Assembly (NCBI GenBank): GCA_041649715.1
Contig: JBAZMP010000003.1
Coordinates: forward strand, 167,690 to 231,689
DNA: 64,000 nucleotides
Source: Patescibacteria group bacterium
GTDB lineage: Bacteria; Patescibacteriota; Patescibacteriia; JAXHNJ01
Direction: 5' to 3'
This document shows positions 9,822 to 60,979 of the stretch, in pieces (position 1 is the first letter of the stretch; each line of letters begins with the position of its first letter). The notes under the pieces were generated by a model. It worked only from the letters and a program-made list of their open reading frames with translations, had not been told where the DNA came from and did not search any database. Both the position numbers and the translations under genes were made by a program.

Positions 9822-10327
9822 TTGGGAATAATCTCGTTAAATTTTCGGACAGCCTCCGGAAACAAAGGCACCAGCCAGGAAGAAAAAACGACGAATATGT
9901 TAACCAGTTGGGAATTCTCGAAAGTATAGGCGAGAACCGTCCCTGAGCTGATCGTCTTGATAAAATTCAAGATAACGCCCAGGATCAATCCGCCCTCAAC
10001 CGCTCCTAAAAACAATCCTCCCAAACGGTTCAGCAAACTAAAACCGGGCAGGATCGCCACCGCCCCGAAGGTTTTGCTGATCAGACGGACCAAAGCGCCG
10101 ACAAGCTTGGAAATCAAGATAAGAAGGATGATAAAAGCGGCAATCTTGACCCCCATATTATCTTTAAGGCCGAAAAAGGCCACGAGATCGTCATACCAGC
10201 GGCTCGCCAAAATCACCCCTAAAAAAATTCCGACGATTGAACCCGCGGTCTCGATCAAACCCCGCCAGAAGCCGAACCAACAAAAGCCCAAAAAAGCCAT
10301 TAAAATCGCACCGTCAAAAAATTCCAT
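9818..10327 (-). CDS. cvpA: CvpA-family membrane protein (colicin V production protein)
   Basis: N-terminal FDGAILMAFLGFCWFGFWRGLI motif and 4 TM helices characteristic of CvpA. Confidence 0.7.
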   Translation of the reverse strand: MEFFDGAILMAFLGFCWFGFWRGLIETAGSIVGIFLGVILASRWYDDLVAFFGLKDNMGVKIAAFIILLILISKLVGALVRLISKTFGAVAILPGFSLLNRLGGLFLGAVEGGLILGVILNFIKTISSGTVLAYTFENSQLVNIFVVFSSWLVPLFPEAVRKFNEIIPK

Positions 10328-10339
10328 ATGATATATCGG

Positions 10340-11791
10340 TTAATTAATTCGGGGGAATATAGCCTCACCCTTAGTTATTTTACCACAAACCAGGGAATTA
10401 GTAATTCTGGCGGCGGTCTGCGGCATAAAAGGCGCCAAAGCCCGGGCCAGATCGCAAAGCATCGCCGCCAATTCGCTAAGAAGCTTTTCAAGTTTATCGC
10501 GGTCTTTTTTCTCTTTGGTCTTGGCCAATTTCCAGGGTTCGTTCTTATCAATTTCCTGATTCGCCCAAGTGACGGCATTTAAGATCTCGCTAAGCGCCTG
10601 GTCAAAGGAATAATTCTCAATTAAAGTATTTACTTTGCTAAAATCCTTGGGACTTTTCAAGATTTTGGGGATTTTACCGGCGCAATATTTTTCAATCATA
10701 TTCAAGACTCTGGCCACTAGATTACCCAGATTATTGGCCAAATCCGCGTTGTATTTTTCCCTGAATCTTGATTCGCTAATATCACCGTCTGACCCGAAGA
10801 TAAATTGTGAAATCAATAGATAACGGGCCGCGTCTACCCCGTATTTTTCCACTAAAAGATTGGGGTCCAGCGCATTGCCCAAAGTCTTAGACATTTTCTG
10901 TTTATCAATAGTGAAATAACCATGAATAAATTCCTCTTTTGGCGGATGTTCACCAACCGCTAAAAGTAAGGCGGGCCAGTAAACCGCGTGAAATTTTAAT
11001 ATCTCCTTGGCCATTAAGTGCAGATCCGCCGGCCACCATTTTTTGTATTCTTTTGCATTATCGCCATAACCAATGGCGGAAATATAATTCTGCAAAGCCT
11101 CGACCCAGACATAAACCACCTGTTTTTTATCAAAAACCAAAGGAATCCCCCATTTCACTTTTTCCCGAGAAACAGAAAAATCTTCCAAACCCTGATTGAT
11201 TAAAGACAAAACCTCGTTTTTCCTGGCCACCGGCAATATTTTAATCTCATCTTTTTCAATCAGCTCTTTCACTTGATCGATATAATTACCCAGTTTGAAA
11301 AAATAGTTATTTTCCGACAGTTTCACCGGCTCCTTTTTATGATCAGCGCATTTCCCATCAACTAAGTCTTTCTCGGTCATAAACTTTTCGCAACCCTCGC
11401 AATACAAACCCTCGTATTGGTCTTCGTAAATCGCTCCATTTTCTTTAAGTTTCAACATAAACTTGTCTACCGACTCGACGTGCCTTTTATCCGTGGTTCG
11501 GATAAAATAATCGTATTCAATGCCTAAATTCTGCCAGGCTACTTTGAATAAGGCCGTAACTTCATCACAAAAAGCCTGCGGGGTTTTTCCCTCTTTTTCC
11601 GCCGCTTGGGCTACTTTTGTCCCGTGCTCATCGGTGCCTGTTAAAAAGAAAACCTTATCCTTGCCCAGTTTATTCCGCCAGTAACGCGCTAAAATATCGG
11701 CCGCTAAGGTCGTATAAGCGTGACCGATATGCGGTTTATCATTAACGTAATATATGGGCGTTGTAATGTAGAATTTTTTGGGCATTGACAT
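10340..11791 (-). CDS. metG: methionyl-tRNA synthetase (short form, no C-terminal tRNA-binding domain)
   Basis: HIGH motif PHIGHAYT, zinc knuckle CEGCEKF...CADHKK, KMSKS motif KMSKTLGN. Confidence 0.9.
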   Translation of the reverse strand: MSMPKKFYITTPIYYVNDKPHIGHAYTTLAADILARYWRNKLGKDKVFFLTGTDEHGTKVAQAAEKEGKTPQAFCDEVTALFKVAWQNLGIEYDYFIRTTDKRHVESVDKFMLKLKENGAIYEDQYEGLYCEGCEKFMTEKDLVDGKCADHKKEPVKLSENNYFFKLGNYIDQVKELIEKDEIKILPVARKNEVLSLINQGLEDFSVSREKVKWGIPLVFDKKQVVYVWVEALQNYISAIGYGDNAKEYKKWWPADLHLMAKEILKFHAVYWPALLLAVGEHPPKEEFIHGYFTIDKQKMSKTLGNALDPNLLVEKYGVDAARYLLISQFIFGSDGDISESRFREKYNADLANNLGNLVARVLNMIEKYCAGKIPKILKSPKDFSKVNTLIENYSFDQALSEILNAVTWANQEIDKNEPWKLAKTKEKKDRDKLEKLLSELAAMLCDLARALAPFMPQTAARITNSLVCGKITKGEAIFPRIN

Positions 11792-17133: not shown

Positions 17134-18288
17134 TCAAGAATAATCATACCAGGTGATCGCTTCAGAAACGCCTATCAGGCTCTTCTTCGCTGCCTCCCAC
17201 TCTTTCGCTTTAAGCGACAGATAAGCGGCTCGGGCATTTTTTATGGCTTCATCTAAACACTTCTTCTGGAAATCTTTCTCCTCCACCAGAATCATCTGGC
17301 CGGCGATCTCGCGCAGCTTCATGATGAGCGAGGCTTTAACAAAGAGGCCGGTATTGATGACGTAGGTGACTTCCAGAATAAGGTCTTCTACTTCCCCCTG
17401 GATTTTTTTCAAGCTCAGGGAATTATACGCCCGGCTTATTTCGACGATTGCTTCCTCAATCCGGTTGGCCAGGATCAGATCGGCGCCCTTTTGAAGTTCC
17501 TTAGTGCCAAGCTCCGCATTAGCGAGGAAAGGTTGAAAGTTTATCACCTCCAAATCAACGATAATGCTGTGGAGCCGGGCGACCATCCGCTGCCTGACCC
17601 TTTCCTCCACCTGATACTGACGCCCTTCACTGAAATCGACAATCGCTTTAAGGAAATGGCAGGATGAAGCGAGCAGATACTCGGCGAAATCGAAAACCGC
17701 TTTTGAAGCCAATAACCGAGGCATTAAGATTTCCTCGATTTTTTCGATTGTAACGAGACGCTCGCCAAACCGGTTGCCGGCGGCCACCGACCGGGCGCGC
17801 AAAGCGCCGGGATTGATTCGGCCCAACGAATCATGGACCAGAGGTATCGGCTCGATCACCCGCAAGCCATTCTCCTTGGTCTCGTCTCTCACCCGGCCGA
17901 CAATCCGGAAAATCTCGTCGACCCTTTCTGTCAATGCCTTTTCATAACCGGCGAGATTACCTTTATTAAGGCCGATCACCGCCAGATTCAATTCCTTGGC
18001 GGCTTCAATCGCTTGCCTCATGACCGACTTCTCGCCGTAATAAGGCTGGTCGTAGCCATTCAGAATGTCTACGACCTGGCGGTGAAAAAGATAAATGCTC
18101 GACAGAAGCTGGAATTTTCTTGTTTCACCCGACCATTTCGGGACGGCGAATTGACCCTTGTGCTTTCCTTCCGTGATCAAGATAACCCGTGTGTTAAGCA
18201 GATACCGACCCCTGGCTTTACCTCGGTGTCTGTACAATTCCGCCTCACCATGGACCCGGCTCAAGAAACGATAAGCCATGATAACCAC
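17134..18288 (-). CDS. hypothetical protein (384 aa), orphan, GC-rich
   Basis: GAGGTGG SD 7 nt upstream; N-terminal alpha/beta region (VIGLNKGNLAGYEKAL) plus C-terminal all-alpha region; no family recognised. Confidence 0.5.
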   Translation of the reverse strand: MVIMAYRFLSRVHGEAELYRHRGKARGRYLLNTRVILITEGKHKGQFAVPKWSGETRKFQLLSSIYLFHRQVVDILNGYDQPYYGEKSVMRQAIEAAKELNLAVIGLNKGNLAGYEKALTERVDEIFRIVGRVRDETKENGLRVIEPIPLVHDSLGRINPGALRARSVAAGNRFGERLVTIEKIEEILMPRLLASKAVFDFAEYLLASSCHFLKAIVDFSEGRQYQVEERVRQRMVARLHSIIVDLEVINFQPFLANAELGTKELQKGADLILANRIEEAIVEISRAYNSLSLKKIQGEVEDLILEVTYVINTGLFVKASLIMKLREIAGQMILVEEKDFQKKCLDEAIKNARAAYLSLKAKEWEAAKKSLIGVSEAITWYDYS

Positions 18289-19047: not shown

Positions 19048-21825
19048 CTACAGCTCCCTTGCCTTTTCCACACTTATCTGTCCTCCCGGTTCCAAGACCG
19101 CCACGTCGCGACGGGTCAGCTTGCCCTGCAGCATATAACTCGCCAAAGCGTTGTCCACCGTTTCCTGGATCAACCGGCGCAAAGGCCGGGCCCCGTAGAT
19201 CGGGTCGTAGCCTGTTTTGGATAATTCCGCGATCGCTTCCGGCGAAGCGCGCAAGGTGATCCCTTTTGCCTGCAGTCTCTGGCCGACCTTCTTCAGCAAC
19301 AAATTCACCACTTGTTTAATATGCTCTAGGCTCAATGGACGGAACAAAATAATGTTGTCAAAACGGTTGATGAATTCCGGCCGGAAGAATTTGAACAATA
19401 TTTCCTCCAAAAGCTCCCGCTTTATCACTTCCAGGGTCGCCCCCTCGTTCAATCTGGCTTGAATGTGCGGCGTGGCCGCGTTGGAGGTGGCGATCAAAAT
19501 GACGTTTGAAAAATCGATCGTCCGACCCAAGGAATCGGTCAGCCGGCCGTCATCCATCACCTGCAAGAAAACATTTAAAACATCGGGATGGGCTTTTTCC
19601 AACTCATCTAGTAAAACCAAAGAAAAGGGGTTATTCCTCACGCTTTCCGTCAAATATCCGCCGACGCCCGCCCCGGCATAACCGGGCGGCGCCCCGATCA
19701 AACGGTTCAAGGAGGACTGGTCTTGATATTCCGACATGTCCAGGCGGATCATGTTTTCCTCCGAACCAAAATAGACATCGGCCACGGTTTTCGCCAGTTC
19801 CGTCTTTCCGACGCCGGTCGGCCCCACAAAAAGCAGATTGGCGATCGGCCGGTCGATATCGCGAAGTTCCATCCGCGCCCGGCGTAGCGCCCCGGCCACC
19901 GCGGTCACGGCCTCTTCCTGGTTGATAATCCTTTCATGGATCCGGTCTTCAAGTTTTAATAATTTTTCGCTTTCTTTTTCCGTGATCTTGGTCACTTTGA
20001 CCTTGGCTCTTTGCGAAATGATCAGAGCCACGTCCTCACCGGTCACCGCCGCGTCACGCCCTTTGGCTTTACGAACATAAACCGCCACTTCCTGCAATAA
20101 AGAAATGGCTTTTTCCGGGAGATAACGGTCATGGATATAACGCTGCGACAAAGTGACCGCTTTTTCTAAGGCCTCGTAGGAAAAATAGACCCGGTTCTTG
20201 TATTCAATCCCGCCGGCTTTGGCCTCCAAAATCCTGATCGCCTCGTTCGTCTCGGGCTCCAAAATAGTCACCTTCTGAAAAACGCCGGTCAAGCCGCCGC
20301 TTTGCTCGATGTAGCGGCTGTAATCAATAGGGTTAGTGGTCGCCATCGCCATAAAATAGCCTTTTTGCAGGGCTTCCGACAAAATCGCCGACAAATCCAG
20401 AGTCTTGCCGCCTCCCGAGGAAACACCAACCATGTTCTGGATATTGTCAATCGAAAGAACAATATTGCCCGACCGGATTATTTCATCGATAATCGCCGAG
20501 AGTCTTTCTTCTAACTCACCGATGGCTCCGGCTCCGGCCACCAGGGCCGGCACTGACAGACTGACCAGGCGCTTATCCCGCAAGACCTCCGGCACATCCT
20601 CCGCCGCCATCAGGGAAGCGATCCCTTCGACAATATTGGTCTTCCCCGTTCCCGGGAAACCGACCAAGATCGGATTGGCCTTGCCGGATTCCATCACCCG
20701 GAAGATTTCCGCGATCTCATTTTCTCTGCCTACGCAAAGCTCCAAAACCCCTTCTCTGGCCAAGCGCGTCAGATCGCGGGAAAACTGGTCTAACACCGGC
20801 GTGGCAATAGCCGTCATTGCCCTGTTTATCCCGCTTTTCGGTTTGCGCGAGGCCCTGGTCCTTAATTTTGACCACTGGCGGCCGAGTTTTTCCTGAATAT
20901 TCAGCCACTCCACCACGTTTCTTAACCGGTCAAAATCTATCCCTAAGTCAAAAAGAATTTCCTGGGCGGCCGTCCCGGTTCTGGCGATAGCGATGATCAG
21001 ATCCGGTACGCCGAGGCTGGCCCGGCGCCCCTTGTAAGCCTCTTCGTAAGCGTAATAAACCAGTTTGCTAAAATTTTCGGATAAGATCGGTTCGCTTGCC
21101 CCCTGACTAGGGATCAGCTGTAAATGCTTATTTATCTGGCCGATCAGCTTATCCGGCATGGCGGCCAACCGGGCCATAATGATTTTCATTTCCCTGGCAG
21201 AAATCAACGCCGCCAAAACATGAAGTGGCTCTAAAGTATTGTGATGGAAACGATTAGCCAATTCCCAAGCTTTCTCCACCGTGCTTTGCGCACCGGCGGT
21301 CAAATACCGGGAAACTTCCTCAGTGATCTTTTTATTCTGCAGTATCTCGGAAAACGATTCCAAGATTTCAGGGGCAGGCACTTTCTCACGGAAATCCCTG
21401 GCAATGTGGGGAAAAGCATTTCTTTCTTTTTCCAACCGGTAATAGATGTACAAATCAACCAGCAGGGAAAACCAAAAGATCAACAAAGAGGTATTACGCA
21501 AAAGCAGAAAATCATAATTCGGATAACCCTGGCTGAAATGCTGGTAGAATTGCCAGAAACCCAGCAAAAGTCCGATTATGCCGACAAGAATCGAAAAGCC
21601 GTTAATGGCCGCCCGCATGGTTTTTTCGGATTTTTCCTCCAAGATCCTGACCAGGGAAATCTTTTTTCGCCAGACCAGATAACGGCCCTGAAAATATCCC
21701 GCCAGGCCTAAGGACCGGCAAGTCGGGCAAGGCCGGTACTTCCCCTCTTCCATGACAAAACTTTGGCCTTGGCACTGCGGACAGGCGATAAAACGCAAGT
21801 CGGGTATTTTCTTTTCTTCGGGCAT
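19048..21825 (-). CDS. membrane-anchored Clp/Hsp100-family AAA+ ATPase (zinc ribbon + 2 TM + Clp_N + two AAA+ modules, no M-domain, no IGF/L loop)
   Basis: N-terminus CPQCQ...CPTCR then two hydrophobic helices; Clp N-domain repeats; AAA1 Walker A GFPGTGKT; AAA2 Walker A FVGPTGVGKTE, sensor SNAAT; Walker-A spacing ~275 aa (ClpA-like). Confidence 0.85.
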   Translation of the reverse strand: MPEEKKIPDLRFIACPQCQGQSFVMEEGKYRPCPTCRSLGLAGYFQGRYLVWRKKISLVRILEEKSEKTMRAAINGFSILVGIIGLLLGFWQFYQHFSQGYPNYDFLLLRNTSLLIFWFSLLVDLYIYYRLEKERNAFPHIARDFREKVPAPEILESFSEILQNKKITEEVSRYLTAGAQSTVEKAWELANRFHHNTLEPLHVLAALISAREMKIIMARLAAMPDKLIGQINKHLQLIPSQGASEPILSENFSKLVYYAYEEAYKGRRASLGVPDLIIAIARTGTAAQEILFDLGIDFDRLRNVVEWLNIQEKLGRQWSKLRTRASRKPKSGINRAMTAIATPVLDQFSRDLTRLAREGVLELCVGRENEIAEIFRVMESGKANPILVGFPGTGKTNIVEGIASLMAAEDVPEVLRDKRLVSLSVPALVAGAGAIGELEERLSAIIDEIIRSGNIVLSIDNIQNMVGVSSGGGKTLDLSAILSEALQKGYFMAMATTNPIDYSRYIEQSGGLTGVFQKVTILEPETNEAIRILEAKAGGIEYKNRVYFSYEALEKAVTLSQRYIHDRYLPEKAISLLQEVAVYVRKAKGRDAAVTGEDVALIISQRAKVKVTKITEKESEKLLKLEDRIHERIINQEEAVTAVAGALRRARMELRDIDRPIANLLFVGPTGVGKTELAKTVADVYFGSEENMIRLDMSEYQDQSSLNRLIGAPPGYAGAGVGGYLTESVRNNPFSLVLLDELEKAHPDVLNVFLQVMDDGRLTDSLGRTIDFSNVILIATSNAATPHIQARLNEGATLEVIKRELLEEILFKFFRPEFINRFDNIILFRPLSLEHIKQVVNLLLKKVGQRLQAKGITLRASPEAIAELSKTGYDPIYGARPLRRLIQETVDNALASYMLQGKLTRRDVAVLEPGGQISVEKAREL

Positions 21826-21832
21826 AAAATAT

Positions 21833-22216
21833 TTAAAAAAGGCCGCGCTGGCCGCTTAAATTTAAAATAATCATATAGACGATGAAAACCGGCAAAACCA
21901 ACCAGAGCAAGAGCAAAACAAGAAGAATGGCCAGCCAAATGACCATCAATACCAGTTTATAGAAAAAGACGATGATTCTCAGAAAAAAACTGATGATCCG
22001 TCCGGAACGGCTGTAATCGCCGTACATCGGTTTCAGCAAGTTCATGAATAATATCTTCAGCGAAAGCCGATTCGACCAGCTTAAGACTTCGTTGACAAAA
22101 AATAAGCCGGCTTTTTTCAAGCCCGCCGTATACCACCAGACGGGAAAATAAACGACATCAAAAACAAGTTCTTTCAGAATATATTTGGTGGTCTTCGCCG
22201 CTAAATTTTCCGCCAT
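21833..22216 (-). CDS. hypothetical membrane protein (127 aa)
   Basis: Multiple TM helices; 8 nt upstream of Clp start. Confidence 0.45.
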   Translation of the reverse strand: MAENLAAKTTKYILKELVFDVVYFPVWWYTAGLKKAGLFFVNEVLSWSNRLSLKILFMNLLKPMYGDYSRSGRIISFFLRIIVFFYKLVLMVIWLAILLVLLLLWLVLPVFIVYMIILNLSGQRGLF

Positions 22217-24224: not shown

Positions 24225-26162
24225 TTACTGACTTTGGGTAACGATCCCCTTTCCCTGGGCATTAATGTCATTCTTCAAATCGGTCGTCAGAGAATCACAA
24301 TTGGCTTTGATCGTTTGTTCGGTAAAACTGTCCGTGGCTTGAAGGTTGGTCTGATCGGTCAAAATTTTCACAAAGCCTCCGTCCGCCGCCACGGGTGTCG
24401 TGCTTACCTCAAAAGAAGCGGAAAGCTGCGGGTAAATCTGGCCGGTACCGACGGGTATTTTATTGACCGTCCAGGTTACTTGACGCGTGGCCGGGGCAAA
24501 AGACAGATCGCCGGCCGATAAAACCTTATTCTGGCCCGTCCAGTAGATATCCGCCGGTAAAGTGGAAACAACTGTCACGTTTAAAAGCTCGTTTGACGTA
24601 TTGGTAAGGTACCAATAGACCCGATAAGTCGTCGTCTGGCCGACCACCGGCGGCAAAGGGCCGGTCCCCAAGGCTTCGTTTTCTTCCGAATAGTAGCGCG
24701 TCTCGCAGTTTAATTCCGCCACCGTATTGACTTTAAGCGTCACCGCGTTGCTTTCGGCCGCCAAACTGCCGCCGCCCAAACCTTCAATGGCAGAAGATTG
24801 ACCTTTAAACTGGCTGATGAACTGGAAATTCTTGTCTTCAGAACCGTTTAGGGCCAATTTTTCCTTAAGATTTATTTTGAAAGTAATTTCCCCGTGGCTG
24901 GCCGGCTTTAAAGAAGAAAGAAGGTCGATCTGGTCTTTTGTCCAGGTGATTGACTGGCCGCTGACCTTCCCCTTAAGATCATCGGCGAAGGTGGAAAAAT
25001 CCAGGAGCTTATCATCCAATTCCAAAGTAAGGGTCACGTCTTTTAATTCTAGGTCGGAATTATTCTGGTAAAGCAAATAATAGGTCAGGGTTTCTCCGGG
25101 ATCAACGGCCGCATTTTCATCGGAACCGTTGATTTTAAGTTCCAGCGTCAGTTCAGGAGAGATCAACAGAACCAGCAGTGATTTTTCCACCTGCGGGTTA
25201 AATTCGCCCTCCGGCCCGATCAGGCCCACCGTAAATTTGATTTCCTTCATGTCACCGGCGGCTCCGACAAATACCCCCTTAAGCTCAATTTCACCCGTGT
25301 TGCCCGCCTCCAGGCGGTCAATCTGCCAGGTGTTCTTGCCTTCGGAAAAATTCGGATTGGCGGAAGCAGGCGTAAAACCGTCCGGATAAACCGCGACCAA
25401 TCTAATTCTTTCCAAGGCCTCGGAAGAATCATTTTTATATTTTATTTTATAGGTCGTTTCTTTTTCCGGGATGACTCTGCTGCCGCCCTCGATTTCCAAA
25501 CCGATATTAGACGAGGAAATGGCGGTCGAAAAAGACGTTTCCGTGTTAAAGGTGGAATTAAAATTAGAGGGTTTATAGCTCAATTTGGCGCTGAAACTTT
25601 TTTGACTTCCCACTTCGCCCATGAGCAAGCCGGTGATTTTCACTTCGCCTCCTTTTCCCGCGCCCAGATCCCGCAGCCTCCAGTATTGATTGTAAGTATT
25701 ATCGGCTTCCGGATCAGCGCTTTTAAAGGTAAATCCTTCCGGATAAGTCACGGATAATTCCAGATTGCCCAAAAAAGCCTGGCCTTGATTCAGGTATTGG
25801 ACAGTCAGGGTTATTTCCTCGCCGGAAGCGACCCGGCTGACCCCCGTAACATTCAAGGCCACGTCCCCTTCTTTAAACTTCTTGTCGCGGAAAAAAACAA
25901 AAAAGCCGGCCAGAGACACGGCAAAAAGCAGAAGCAATAAACCGATTATTTTTAGATAAAATGATTTTTTGCCTTTCTTCACTTTTTCCAGTTTCGTCAA
26001 ATTCAAAGGCTTGCCATCTTTATCCTGATACATCTTAGCGATGGCTGGTTTATAATCCGCCAGAGATTTCACCTGGTTGTCCCTTTTTTCTTCTTCCTTC
26101 TTTTCTTCCACCTTAAAAACGGGGATTTGACGGGTAAAATCTTTTACTTTTTTCTTTGGCAT
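24225..26162 (-). CDS. single-pass membrane/surface protein with tandem beta-sandwich (DUF11/CARDB-like) repeats
   Basis: N-terminal Lys-rich cytoplasmic tail, one TM helix, then ~5 repeats of ~110 aa rich in T/S/N/G. Confidence 0.55.
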   Translation of the reverse strand: MPKKKVKDFTRQIPVFKVEEKKEEEKRDNQVKSLADYKPAIAKMYQDKDGKPLNLTKLEKVKKGKKSFYLKIIGLLLLLFAVSLAGFFVFFRDKKFKEGDVALNVTGVSRVASGEEITLTVQYLNQGQAFLGNLELSVTYPEGFTFKSADPEADNTYNQYWRLRDLGAGKGGEVKITGLLMGEVGSQKSFSAKLSYKPSNFNSTFNTETSFSTAISSSNIGLEIEGGSRVIPEKETTYKIKYKNDSSEALERIRLVAVYPDGFTPASANPNFSEGKNTWQIDRLEAGNTGEIELKGVFVGAAGDMKEIKFTVGLIGPEGEFNPQVEKSLLVLLISPELTLELKINGSDENAAVDPGETLTYYLLYQNNSDLELKDVTLTLELDDKLLDFSTFADDLKGKVSGQSITWTKDQIDLLSSLKPASHGEITFKINLKEKLALNGSEDKNFQFISQFKGQSSAIEGLGGGSLAAESNAVTLKVNTVAELNCETRYYSEENEALGTGPLPPVVGQTTTYRVYWYLTNTSNELLNVTVVSTLPADIYWTGQNKVLSAGDLSFAPATRQVTWTVNKIPVGTGQIYPQLSASFEVSTTPVAADGGFVKILTDQTNLQATDSFTEQTIKANCDSLTTDLKNDINAQGKGIVTQSQ

Positions 26163-34984: not shown

Positions 34985-35100
34985 GCTCTATTCGTTCTAT
35001 CGCCTTCGGGCTAGTACAAAGGATTAGAACGAGTGAACCGACAGAACGCCTAAAAAGATTACAACATACACGGGGATGCCAAAATTCGATAGAACGTTAA
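34985..35100. repeat. palindromic element copy B (TTCGTTCTATCGCC ... TTCGATAGAACGTT) spanning smpB-ssrA junction
   Basis: Left arm 34988-35000, right arm 35086-35099 lies inside tmRNA 5' region. Confidence 0.5.
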
Positions 35101-35462
35101 CAAGGTAAGCTATGCAAGCCGAGCCCGATGGAAACTCGCTAAAAGTCCGTCAAATGATAAGTGTCAAAAACTTATTCAGCAAACTAAGAGAAGCTTTTTC
35201 TCCTAAATTTGCTTTTGCTGCCGTTTAATTAACCGCAGCCATCTGTAAAAGCTGATACCTAATAGGCTCTTATGGGTGTCAAAATATTAGGCATGACTGA
35301 CCGGTTGTCTTGGCGGGTCAGTCGAGAGCACAAAAAGACTTTAGACTTTAAGGTTTTGTTTCTTTCCCACTTAGAGTCCGAACTAAAACCAAAGAAAACA
35401 CGCTTGTAGAATATTTTGCCTTTACTTTCTAGACGCGGGTGCAAGGCCCGCCATCTCCACCA
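35072..35462 (+). ncRNA. ssrA: tmRNA (SsrA)
   Basis: 5' GGGGATG pairs with 3' CATCTCC-ACCA giving a 7-bp acceptor stem with G3:U70 (alanine identity); T-arm GCGGG-TGCAAGG-CCCGC; ATTCGA D-loop-like motif; PK1-like TATGCAAGCCGAG; immediately downstream of smpB; candidate tag ORF ending ...KFAFAAV-TAA near 35200-35230 (uncertain). Confidence 0.75.
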
Positions 35463-60254: not shown

Positions 60255-60455
60255 TGATTAAATCCTTTCGACCGAAGGCTTTTACTTAAGGTATCCTGGC
60301 TTACAGAGGATTGGCTCATCTTTCCCTTCCCCCCAACCTCCTTCCTAGACGGAAAGCGTTAGAAGTGGTTTAAAAGACTGGCTTCTCTGTTTACAGTGAC
60401 GGGATCGCGCCGGATTCACACCGGACTTCCCTTTTTCTTGGTCTTAACTTTCAAC
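60255..60455 (-). promoter_or_regulatory. cobalamin (AdoCbl) riboswitch with terminator-type expression platform
   Basis: Minus-strand RNA reads AAAAAGGGAAGTCCGGTGTGAATCCGGCGCGATCCCGTCACTGTAAACAG...GTAAGCCAGGATACCTTAAG (B12-box) followed by AAACCCT-loop-AGGGTTT-T7 terminator and SD AAAGGA before DUF4430 ATG. Confidence 0.7.
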
Positions 60456-60472
60456 CAAGAAATATTAAATTT

Positions 60473-60979
60473 TTAATATTCGATGCCTTTTCGGGCCCTT
60501 ACTCCCTGATTGAAGTAATGCTTGACGGCCCGCATTTCTGTGACTAAATCCGCTTGTTCAAGTATCTTACCACAGGCGCCTCGGCCTGTCAAAATAATTT
60601 CTGTGGATAAAGATTTACCCTTGATAAGCTTTAAAATATCCGCCGGGGCAATTAACTTGAGTTTGGCCGCGACATTTATTTCATCCAGTATCACCAGGTC
60701 AGATCTTCCTTCTTTGACCATCCGGCCGGCATAAGCCAGGGCCTCACGCGCCGCTTTCCGGTCTATGGCGCTCGGCCTGCTAAAATTAACAAAAGCCCGC
60801 CGGCCGAATTGTTTGACGGTTATGTTTTTGAATTTTTTTAACGCTTTGACCTCGCCAAAATCCCCTTTTTTCATGAACTGGATCAGGCAGACTTTTTTCC
60901 CCTGGCCCAAGGCCCTTAAGGCCTGCCCTAAAGCGGCCGTGGTCTTTCCCTTGCCGTCGCCGGTATAGACCTGGATCAT
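60473..60979 (-). CDS. btuR: cob(I)yrinic acid a,c-diamide / cob(I)alamin adenosyltransferase (CobA/BtuR family)
   Basis: [37 protein letters not shown] P-loop region. Confidence 0.8.
   Translation of the reverse strand: [168 protein letters not shown]

Follow-up and report, generated by a model that had tools for sequence, protein, structure and literature searches.

A Patescibacteria-specific Hsp100 subfamily with a predicted N-terminal membrane anchor, a degenerate D1 module and an orphan partner protein

The subject of this analysis is a gene of the Hsp100/Clp family located on a stretch of 64,000 nucleotides from a Patescibacteria group bacterium (assembly GCA_041649715.1, contig JBAZMP010000003.1, positions 167,690 to 231,689), the whole of which is referred to below as the window. 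The gene starts with ATG and encodes a protein of 925 amino acids (aa). At its N-terminus a zinc finger is predicted, and after it a membrane hairpin of two helices, which a tether of about 40 residues connects to a Clp_N domain; two AAA+ modules make up the remainder, the first (D1) predicted to be degenerate and the second (D2) competent. Directly upstream lies the gene of an orphan membrane protein, referred to here as the partner, whose stop codon is found 7 nt before the ATG of the Hsp100 gene. A preliminary description of the locus had presented the product as a membrane-anchored Hsp100 lacking both an M-domain and a ClpP-docking loop, an architecture unusual among Hsp100s. The present analysis supports this architecture, which withstood the refuting conditions named in that description, and the motifs, the sensor and the modules listed at that time were each found where they had been placed. 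The features of the locus are collected in Table 1.

Table 1. Features of the Hsp100 locus, with their positions in the window and the evidence used to define them (AF2, AlphaFold2; KD, Kyte-Doolittle hydropathy; ORF, open reading frame; TM, transmembrane).
Feature	Position	Strand	Basis
Hsp100/Clp-family gene, 925 aa, complete, stop included	19048..21825	-	ORF list, Pfam, identical NCBI model, AF2
Single DnaJ-type zinc finger, residues 10-51, predicted cytoplasmic	21673..21798	-	Cys conservation, sub-threshold Pfam matches, AF2 strands
TM helix 1, residues 73-94 (predicted)	21544..21609	-	KD, AF2 helix, column conservation
TM helix 2, residues 112-131, marginal	21433..21492	-	KD, positive-inside pattern, R130, AF2 helix
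Clp_N domain, residues 176-327, two four-helix repeats	20845..21300	-	ClpC/ClpA alignment, AF2
D1 AAA+ module, residues 343-607, predicted to be catalytically degenerate, no M-domain insertion	20005..20799	-	ClpC alignment, family statistics
D2 AAA+ module, residues 613-925 plus stop, with ClpB_D2-small lid	19048..19989	-	Catalytic residues, AAA_2, loop analysis
Orphan membrane protein, 127 aa, conserved partner	21833..22216	-	Homology, spacing, co-occurrence, AF2, hydropathy
Two tandem paralogous genes for small hydrophobic membrane proteins, 97 and 94 aa	18395..18980	-	Identity, tblastn, Pfam/NCBIfam
384-aa protein, family unrecognised, lineage-restricted downstream neighbour	17134..18288	-	tblastn, Pfam/NCBIfam

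The Hsp100 gene and its partner

Over its full length, the protein is 100% identical to an NCBI gene model of 925 aa (P0001) from a Patescibacteria metagenome-assembled genome (MAG), which is labelled "ATP-dependent Clp protease ATP-binding subunit"; the names given to the family in databases are generic only. Pfam matches were obtained to AAA_2 (E = 1.7e-56), ClpB_D2-small (2.5e-23), AAA_lid_9 (4.4e-13) and AAA. By its domain content (Clp_N, AAA plus AAA_lid_9, and AAA_2 plus ClpB_D2-small) the protein can be assigned to the Hsp100/Clp class I. The AF2 model, computed from an alignment of 90 sequences, has a mean pLDDT of 86, and the best PDB relatives, both by sequence and by fold (Foldseek), are ClpC and ClpB. 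The NCBIfam models of ClpB, ClpA, ClpK, ClpG and ClpV could all be aligned to the protein, with scores far under the curated cut-offs: the ClpB model TIGR03346 gave 635 against a cut-off of 1232, as two separate stretches, and the ClpA models TIGR02639 and PRK11034 gave 551 against 993 and 411 against 1350, respectively. The score of the ClpX equivalog was also far under its cut-off.

Kerfeld-, Buchanan-, Falkow- and other Patescibacteria yielded about 110 homologs of full length (895-945 aa) with identities of 42-81%, and between this group and canonical Firmicute ClpC the bit score drops from 720 to 525. As judged from these sequence comparisons, the gene is a member of a Patescibacteria-specific Hsp100 subfamily. 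Unless another number is given, the family statistics reported below refer to 106 full-length homologs.

A gene for a protein of 119-139 aa, with no Pfam match, is present at the partner position in 10 out of 10 hand-picked related loci, and in all nine of the hand-picked loci with DNA the upstream protein is homologous to the partner (E 1e-38 to 1e-55). In 10 of 11 loci the intergenic spacing lies between -13 and +7 nt. Among the loci from species genomes with room downstream, the partner is directly followed, on the same strand, by a full-length Hsp100 gene in 77 cases out of 79, and the two genes mostly abut or overlap. The partner family comprises at least 901 protein clusters, all of them from Patescibacteria, all annotated as hypothetical and none with a Pfam match, and is present in at least 561 species-representative genomes. 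To judge from this distribution and spacing, the partner is near-obligate and translationally coupled to the Hsp100 gene.

In the two remaining loci (L064 and L066) the partner is not followed by the Hsp100 gene, its place being taken in L064 by ORFs of 189 and 325 aa; gene loss, rearrangement or a split gene could account for these exceptions. It should also be noted that many of the species-representative MAGs carrying the pair are titled "uncultured Gammaproteobacteria bacterium" (L016, L018-L020, L031, L036, L039 and others), and one "Acutalibacteraceae". Mislabelling of the records or mis-binning of the contigs is the probable cause.

The AF2 model of the partner is all-helical (pLDDT 87). 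Its fold gave no match in the PDB, and its sequence gave none in Pfam or NCBIfam. The conserved motifs of the family are YFPxWWY and KPM[YF]G..GR[IL]IS. The hydropathy profile comprises a basic, aromatic-rich part, a juxtamembrane helix with R73, R80 and K87 at a spacing of seven residues, and an uninterrupted hydrophobic stretch (88-121); this indicates a tail-anchor-like layout, with the basic aromatic-rich domain predicted to lie in the cytoplasm. R80 is invariant, and the co-variation between this residue and D124 of the Hsp100 was uninformative for this reason.

Domain architecture of the protein

The N-terminal part of the protein contains four cysteine residues in the arrangement C15-P-Q-C18-Q-G ... 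C33-P-T-C36. Of the 106 homologs, 88 possess C15, C18, C33 and C36, the remainder being mostly shorter gene models; in a diverse alignment of 29 sequences these cysteines are invariant, together with R130. The family consensus is CPxCxGxG...CxxCxGxG, from which the window protein departs in part (CPQCQGQS and CPTCRSLG). A Pfam scan of 29 members gave consistent matches under the gathering score to PF00684 DnaJ_CXXCXGXG (21 of 29, best E 2.9e-4) and to Anti-TRAP (16 of 29, best E 5.8e-6), and further sub-threshold matches to BSD2_CRD (4 of 29) and GRXCR1-2_C, while AF2 places beta-strands at residues 10-51. These data are consistent with the cysteine quartet forming a single zinc centre of the DnaJ CxxCxGxG type, as opposed to a generic ribbon. 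The "zinc ribbon" of the preliminary description is better read as such a centre, on the grounds of the consensus and of the DnaJ, Anti-TRAP and BSD2 matches. The zinc domain of DnaJ helps bind non-native proteins.

The finger is followed by the two predicted TM helices. The first, TM1, reaches a KD maximum (19-residue window) of 2.14, a value that exceeds 1.6 in 98% of the members; it is preceded by a basic juxtamembrane helix (58-72), and its residues N75 and G85 are conserved. The KD value of TM2 is 1.58, compared with a mean of 1.42 for the family, and a Hessa scale gives about +4.6 kcal/mol; W118, D124, Y129 and R130 are its conserved residues. TM1 is strongly hydrophobic and TM2 marginally so; TM2 would lead the chain back to the cytoplasm. 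In the AF2 model, helices are found at residues 58-98 and 112-136. The mean number of Lys and Arg residues in the family is 4.45 before TM1, 1.38 in the loop of about 17 residues and 5.28 after TM2. This pattern favours a hairpin with both ends inside, and supports a location of the zinc finger and the ATPase on the same, cytoplasmic side of the membrane.

An exhaustive profile search with the N-terminal module retrieved 741 representatives. In the top 150 of these, the module was associated with Clp_N and D1, with or without D2, or was found in contig-end fragments, and in none of these 150 was the combination of zinc finger and TM segments fused to other domains. As its conservation shows, the N-terminal extension is real and under selection.

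The Clp_N domain can be aligned with the N-domain of ClpC from residue 176 and with that of ClpA from residue 179 or 187, the ClpA alignment spanning residues 179-905. The AF2 model shows eight helices in this region, arranged as two four-helix repeats (177-327). The Clp_N double repeat proposed earlier is confirmed by both observations; the Pfam score of Clp_N is sub-threshold in the window protein (17.7 versus 20.7 bits), and PF02861 is precomputed for nearly all of the homologs.

The two AAA+ modules are of very different quality. In D1, the Walker A motif GFPGTGKT (389-396) is intact in the window protein. The Walker B motif reads D460-N461, that is, IDN where ClpC has IDE; the pore loop has G433-A434-I435 in place of KYR (AGAGAIGE versus AGTKYRGE in ClpC), and the Arg-finger positions are occupied by G514-V515 (TGVFQ versus ERRFQ in ClpC). 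The same holds for the family, in which the Walker B pair DE is found in none of the 106 members (DN 44, ED 18, EN 16, and others), nor does any of them have the aromatic pore residue or the Arg-finger pair, whereas the P-loop signature GK[TS] is kept in 58, including the window protein. As Walker B Glu, pore-loop Tyr and Arg fingers are all missing throughout, D1 is predicted to be catalytically degenerate in the whole family, which would make the protein a single-motor machine. The "two AAA+ modules" of the preliminary description are thus present structurally, but not functionally, D1 being degenerate in 106 out of 106 members.

In D2, which has the Walker A motif GPTGVGKT at residues 668-675 and is 35-43% identical to the D2 of ClpC, ClpB and ClpA, none of the 106 members lacks any of the residues K674, D740, E741, N782, R821 (trans Arg finger) and R880. 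This invariance speaks for an obligate ring ATPase. D2 is therefore predicted to be a fully competent ATPase; of the two competent rings that are a criterion of class I Hsp100s, the family would have the second and lack the first. The aromatic residue of the D2 pore loop is present in 40 of the 106 members. The window protein keeps it (Y716, in the sequence PPGY716), as do its nearest relatives, and belongs to the least degenerate class of the family (29/106), in which the D1 P-loop is intact and PPGY716 is present. Because Y716 is retained, a role as an unfoldase or disaggregase is plausible for this protein.

The distance between the two Walker A motifs is 272-279 residues in the family, compared with 337 in ClpC, so that the ClpA-like spacing of about 275 aa noticed earlier holds for all members (275+-4). 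From the sensor-2 motif of D1 (DRYLPEKA) to the Walker A motif of D2 there are 102 residues in all of the 58 members that could be parsed, compared with 161 in the eight ClpC sequences with a short M-domain which served as reference for this and for the following loop comparison (P0113-P0120). The AF2 model of the window protein contains no coiled coil, and the absence of the M-domain is thereby borne out. Similarly, the segment between the D2 sensor-1 and the FRPEF motif has a fixed length of 31-32 residues in the family, compared with 37-39 in ClpC, and is in this respect ClpB-like. The window protein has E794-G795-A796 at the ClpP-docking position, where ClpC has (V/L)GF, and a hydrophobic-Gly-hydrophobic tripeptide is found at that position in 3 of 91 relatives. 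The shorter segment and the EGA triplet confirm the absence of an IG(F/L) docking loop, which the preliminary description had been unable to find.

The further claim that the protein is independent of ClpP needs some qualification. ClpP is common in Patescibacteria (K01358, 120.8% genomic proportion; PMC12361377), so that this claim is backed by the missing docking loop and not by an absence of the gene; TM7x, for instance, carries clpP. A tblastn search with E. coli queries found no clpP, clpX or ftsH in the 64-kb window, a result which applies to the window and not to the genome, and no clpP was found in the sampled neighbourhoods of the relatives.

Two variants of the module were observed in addition. 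The first is a paralogous family of proteins of 583-631 aa, with 21-28% identity to the window protein, which have the zinc finger, the TM hairpin, Clp_N and a D1-like module, and end naturally after D1 (P0278, P0296, P0298, P0306, P0314, P0319, P0321, P0334, P0337, P0341 and P0351). They share a conserved C-terminus, (V/E)P(Y/F)TK(I/L)LK, and several of them are without any Walker A motif. No such paralog is encoded in the window. Judging by their sequences, the same module seems here to have given rise to a membrane-anchored pseudo-ATPase with a single ring. The second variant is P0295 (1231 aa), a member of the Hsp100 family with a C-terminal extension of about 300 residues ending in a hydrophobic, TM-like tail; such an Hsp100 would have a membrane anchor at either end.

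Genomic neighbourhood

The gene order of the window is of the type RecO, DUF11 protein, TGT, and further on partner, Hsp100, GlyRS-like protein, M16 peptidase and AI-2E transporter. In a second type of synteny, the partner and the Hsp100 are followed by a GT4 gene and, further on, by the genes of L21 and RecR; one locus, L008, combines both types. The DUF11/CLIPPER-domain protein, of about 610-700 aa and probably a surface protein, is encoded upstream of the pair in the interval between recO and tgt (24225-26162, minus strand, in the window), and was also found in L001-L004, L006, L008 and L009.

The GT4 gene lies directly downstream of the Hsp100 gene in 5 of the 10 hand-picked loci and in 14 of 66 loci collected systematically, and is absent from the window. 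It scores best as a WecA-type protein, far under the cut-off. An identification as MraY, with a link to the dcw cluster, was considered and rejected, because the WecA type scores better and because the gene is found in only 14 of the 66 loci. We regard GT4 as weak context. In L005 (2786-4994), the pair comes directly after mraZ, rsmH and a gene for an FtsL-like protein of 120 aa (TM segment plus coiled coil), and GT4 is the next gene; here the pair is inside a remnant division/cell-wall cluster.

Downstream of the Hsp100 gene in the window are the two tandem genes for proteins of 97 and 94 aa, which are 41% identical to each other. They are absent from 89 related loci and have no match in Pfam or NCBIfam. 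Between the Hsp100 gene and these two genes there is no terminator-like site, the first one being found at 18338-18316; the two genes are probably co-transcribed with the Hsp100 gene in this genome only, and lie outside the conserved module. The gene for the 384-aa protein is found just downstream of the Hsp100 gene and on the same strand in 16 of the 89 loci (tblastn, 23-52% identity), and is followed in the window by a strong terminator-like hairpin (17124-17097). Neither this protein nor the product of a 121-aa ORF has a match in Pfam or NCBIfam.

Three further elements were recorded during the analysis. The window contains a tmRNA (35072-35462, plus strand), which obtained 107.7 bits with Rfam and was not reported by ARAGORN, and whose tag could give a hint as to the protease that deals with tagged proteins in this organism. 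A cobalamin riboswitch is also present (60274-60477, minus strand, 72.6 bits), in a Patescibacteria genome that seems to be reduced. In L009, a pair of genes resembling a diversity-generating retroelement (bAvd plus an RVT_1 reverse transcriptase; 9969-11373) is found about 2 kb downstream of the Hsp100 gene.

Possible function and comparison with known systems

We propose, with moderate confidence, that the protein is a membrane-tethered, ClpP-independent extractase or unfoldase of membrane-associated or aggregation-prone envelope proteins, powered by D2 and assisted by the partner. It would assemble into a hexameric double ring, as may be expected because the trans-acting Arg finger of D2 (R821) is invariant, and its 12 TM helices would keep the ring attached to the membrane on the cytoplasmic side. 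Hsp100s thread their substrates from the N-domain/D1 side towards D2; since the anchor is N-terminal, the entry face, made up of zinc finger, N-domain and D1, would be turned towards the membrane. There, the capture of non-native segments would fall to the zinc finger and the N-domain. D1 would act as a passive scaffold, which in the window protein may still bind nucleotide, and D2 would be the only site of ATP hydrolysis, with Y716 of the window protein drawing the polypeptide away from the membrane and into the cytoplasm. The partner could be an adaptor, a regulator or a dedicated substrate.

Several observations weigh against this proposal. Oligomerisation, the binding of zinc, insertion into the membrane and ATP hydrolysis are predictions; TM2 is only marginally hydrophobic and contains a conserved Asp; and the partner has no fold or family that could be recognised by the PDB fold search, Pfam or NCBIfam. 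The genomic context points to no substrate, and the synteny with RecO, DUF11, TGT and GT4 may be mere ancestral gene order. Moreover, the D2 pore loop is without an aromatic residue in 66 of the 106 members, and in 52 of the 106 it is shortened and devoid of any hydrophobic residue. What is conserved in the family can thus not be canonical threading, and even the window protein may work in some other way.

That 66 of 106 members have lost the aromatic residue of the D2 pore loop, while the D2 catalytic residues are invariant, motivates the main rival explanation, which we consider possible but rather doubtful, namely that the protein is a non-threading, ATP-driven regulator or assembly chaperone, in which conformational changes driven by hydrolysis in D2 would be transmitted through D1, the N-domain and the TM hairpin to the partner or to a polytopic enzyme encoded nearby, such as the WecA-like GT4. 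The absence of pore-loop aromatics from D1 in the whole family, the near-obligate membrane partner, the conservation of the polar residues N75, D124 and R130 in or beside the TM hairpin, and the WecA-like gene directly downstream in 5/10 hand-picked and 14/66 systematic loci all fit such a mechanism. SpoVK, reported to be an AAA+ chaperone activating MurG (PMC10659427), provides a precedent. On the other hand, the canonical PPGY pore loop has been preserved in the window protein and in its close relatives, Clp_N and the DnaJ-type finger are typical substrate-capture modules, and GT4 is missing from the window and from most loci. One may go further and imagine a membrane machine specific to the candidate phyla radiation (CPR), in which a repurposed Hsp100 and its partner would gate, assemble or remodel an envelope component instead of unfolding anything; this appears unlikely to us. 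D1 would then be a pseudo-ATPase scaffold, the threading paddle of D2 would have been lost in most lineages, and ATP hydrolysis would be coupled through N75, D124 and R130 of the hairpin to the membrane segment of the partner, with its invariant R80, the output being possibly linked to WecA-type glycopolymer initiation. If this were true, the D1-only paralogs without a P-loop would be a further step on the same path.

It is improbable that the protein is the unfoldase half of a membrane-bound protease, docked in a non-canonical way to ClpP, FtsH or the M16 peptidase encoded nearby. The NCBI label, the common occurrence of ClpP in Patescibacteria (PMC12361377), the ClpA-like spacing of the Walker A motifs, the hydrophobic-Gly-hydrophobic tripeptide in 3 of 91 relatives and the syntenic M16 peptidase gene a few genes away could be quoted in its favour. 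They are opposed by the EGA triplet at the docking site, in a ClpB-like loop of fixed length which is 6-8 residues shorter than that of ClpC, by the NCBIfam scores far under the cut-offs of the ClpA, ClpB and ClpX equivalogs, and by the failure to find clpP in the 64-kb window or in the sampled neighbourhoods. An export motor, with the hexamer, 12 TM helices and six partner subunits pushing unfolded proteins out of the cell, would have a parallel in Hsp101 of the Plasmodium PTEX translocon, and a ring with multiple TM helices would indeed give an AAA+ assembly embedded in the membrane; the TM segments contain conserved polar residues, CPR bacteria rely on surface and secreted proteins, and the gene of a DUF11 surface protein is syntenic. 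However, the N-terminal anchor places at the membrane the entry face and not the D2 exit face, so that threading would move the substrate away from the membrane; in addition, the extracytoplasmic loop has only about 17 residues and no channel-like fold was found for the partner, and we regard this possibility as very improbable. Finally, hardly any credit can be given to an annotation artefact, that is, an ordinary cytosolic Clp whose true start is downstream or whose hydrophobic segments are buried in a soluble domain. TM2 is marginally hydrophobic, and about 12-17 of the 106 homolog gene models are without the extreme N-terminus. Nevertheless, a wrong start, by which the preliminary description might have been undone, is at variance with an extension conserved over 42-81% identity, with its cysteines and R130 invariant and 741 representatives of the module, and is rejected also in view of the identical NCBI model and of the partner stop codon 7 nt before the ATG, a coupling that is itself conserved. 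The KD value of TM1, above 1.6 in 98% of the members, and the positive-inside pattern fit a membrane hairpin.

No published account of a bacterial Hsp100 from Patescibacteria that is membrane-anchored or has a degenerate D1 was found in the open-access full text that was searched, most subscription journals being outside this scope, and a 2026 preprint on a CPR pilus involves no ATPase. A prior description may exist elsewhere. On the comparisons made here, the proteins appear to form a distinct Hsp100 subfamily that is widespread and lineage-specific, combines its features in an unusual way and comes with an orphan partner, and the label "ATP-dependent Clp protease ATP-binding subunit" probably misstates their function. 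Hsp100s belong to the AAA+ motors that are understood best. The textbook Hsp100 is soluble, forms a double ring in which both tiers are active, and docks ClpP or works with Hsp70 through its M-domain; the family departs from every one of these rules at once. It would be a natural experiment on what a single D2 motor can do behind a dead D1 ring, and bears on the quality control of membrane proteins in bacteria without the usual repertoire. The gradual loss of P-loop and pore loop within one family also bears on the evolution of unfoldases into non-threading pseudo-enzymes. All this concerns a phylum from which very few proteins have been characterised, and which may account for much of the diversity of bacteria.

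Among the known Hsp100s, ClpC, ClpB and ClpA share with the family the Clp_N domain, the two AAA+ modules and the AAA_lid_9 and ClpB_D2-small lids; the family differs from all three in its own N-terminal zinc finger and TM hairpin, in its degenerate D1, and in NCBIfam equivalog scores of about half the cut-offs. The likeness to ClpA is confined to the spacing of the rings, ClpA having an IGL loop which the window protein lacks and an equivalog cut-off which it does not reach; the likeness to ClpB lies in the short segment after sensor-1, without a ClpP loop, but ClpB/Hsp104 has a long coiled-coil M-domain, the docking site of Hsp70, which the window protein lacks. ClpC has a short M-domain with a UVR motif and a (V/L)GF loop, both of which are missing here. 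Closer in its N-terminus is the ClpE of Firmicutes, a two-ring Hsp100 with a CxxC...CxxC zinc module at the extreme N-terminus, whose structure 29hb was among the PDB matches. ClpE is soluble, and has a short M-domain, a ClpP loop and two active rings. In the window protein, by contrast, the finger is of the DnaJ CxxCxGxG type and is followed by the membrane hairpin and Clp_N, and both the M-domain and the ClpP loop are absent.

As to the mode of anchoring, FtsH is an AAA+ hexamer with two N-terminal TM helices per subunit and the entry face towards the membrane, and resembles the protein in this N-terminal two-TM anchoring and membrane-facing entry. It differs in having one classical AAA module, an M41 metalloprotease and a sizeable extracytoplasmic domain, where the window protein has two Hsp100 modules and a loop of about 17 residues; no peptidase domain, M41 included, was found in the protein with Pfam or NCBIfam. 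Skd3 (human CLPB), which was among the PDB matches, is an Hsp100 relative with a D2-type motor only and without ClpP, and Msp1/ATAD1 is described (PMC12793716) as an N-terminally membrane-anchored AAA+ extractase without a protease. Both Msp1/ATAD1 and Skd3 differ from the family in having a single ring and no Clp_N, zinc finger or degenerate D1. In Pex1/Pex6, an inactive D1 ring is combined with active D2 pore loops and with N-domains bound by the tail-anchored Pex15, and the complex acts in membrane-protein extraction and unfolding (PMC5762779). Pex1/Pex6 belongs to the NSF/Cdc48-like clade, is eukaryotic and heterohexameric, and the ATPase itself is not integrated into the membrane. The likeness of the family to Pex1/Pex6 with Pex15/Pex26, which is the nearest analogue of the proposed mechanism, would be one of analogy, not homology: a dead D1, an active D2 and a small membrane-anchored partner.

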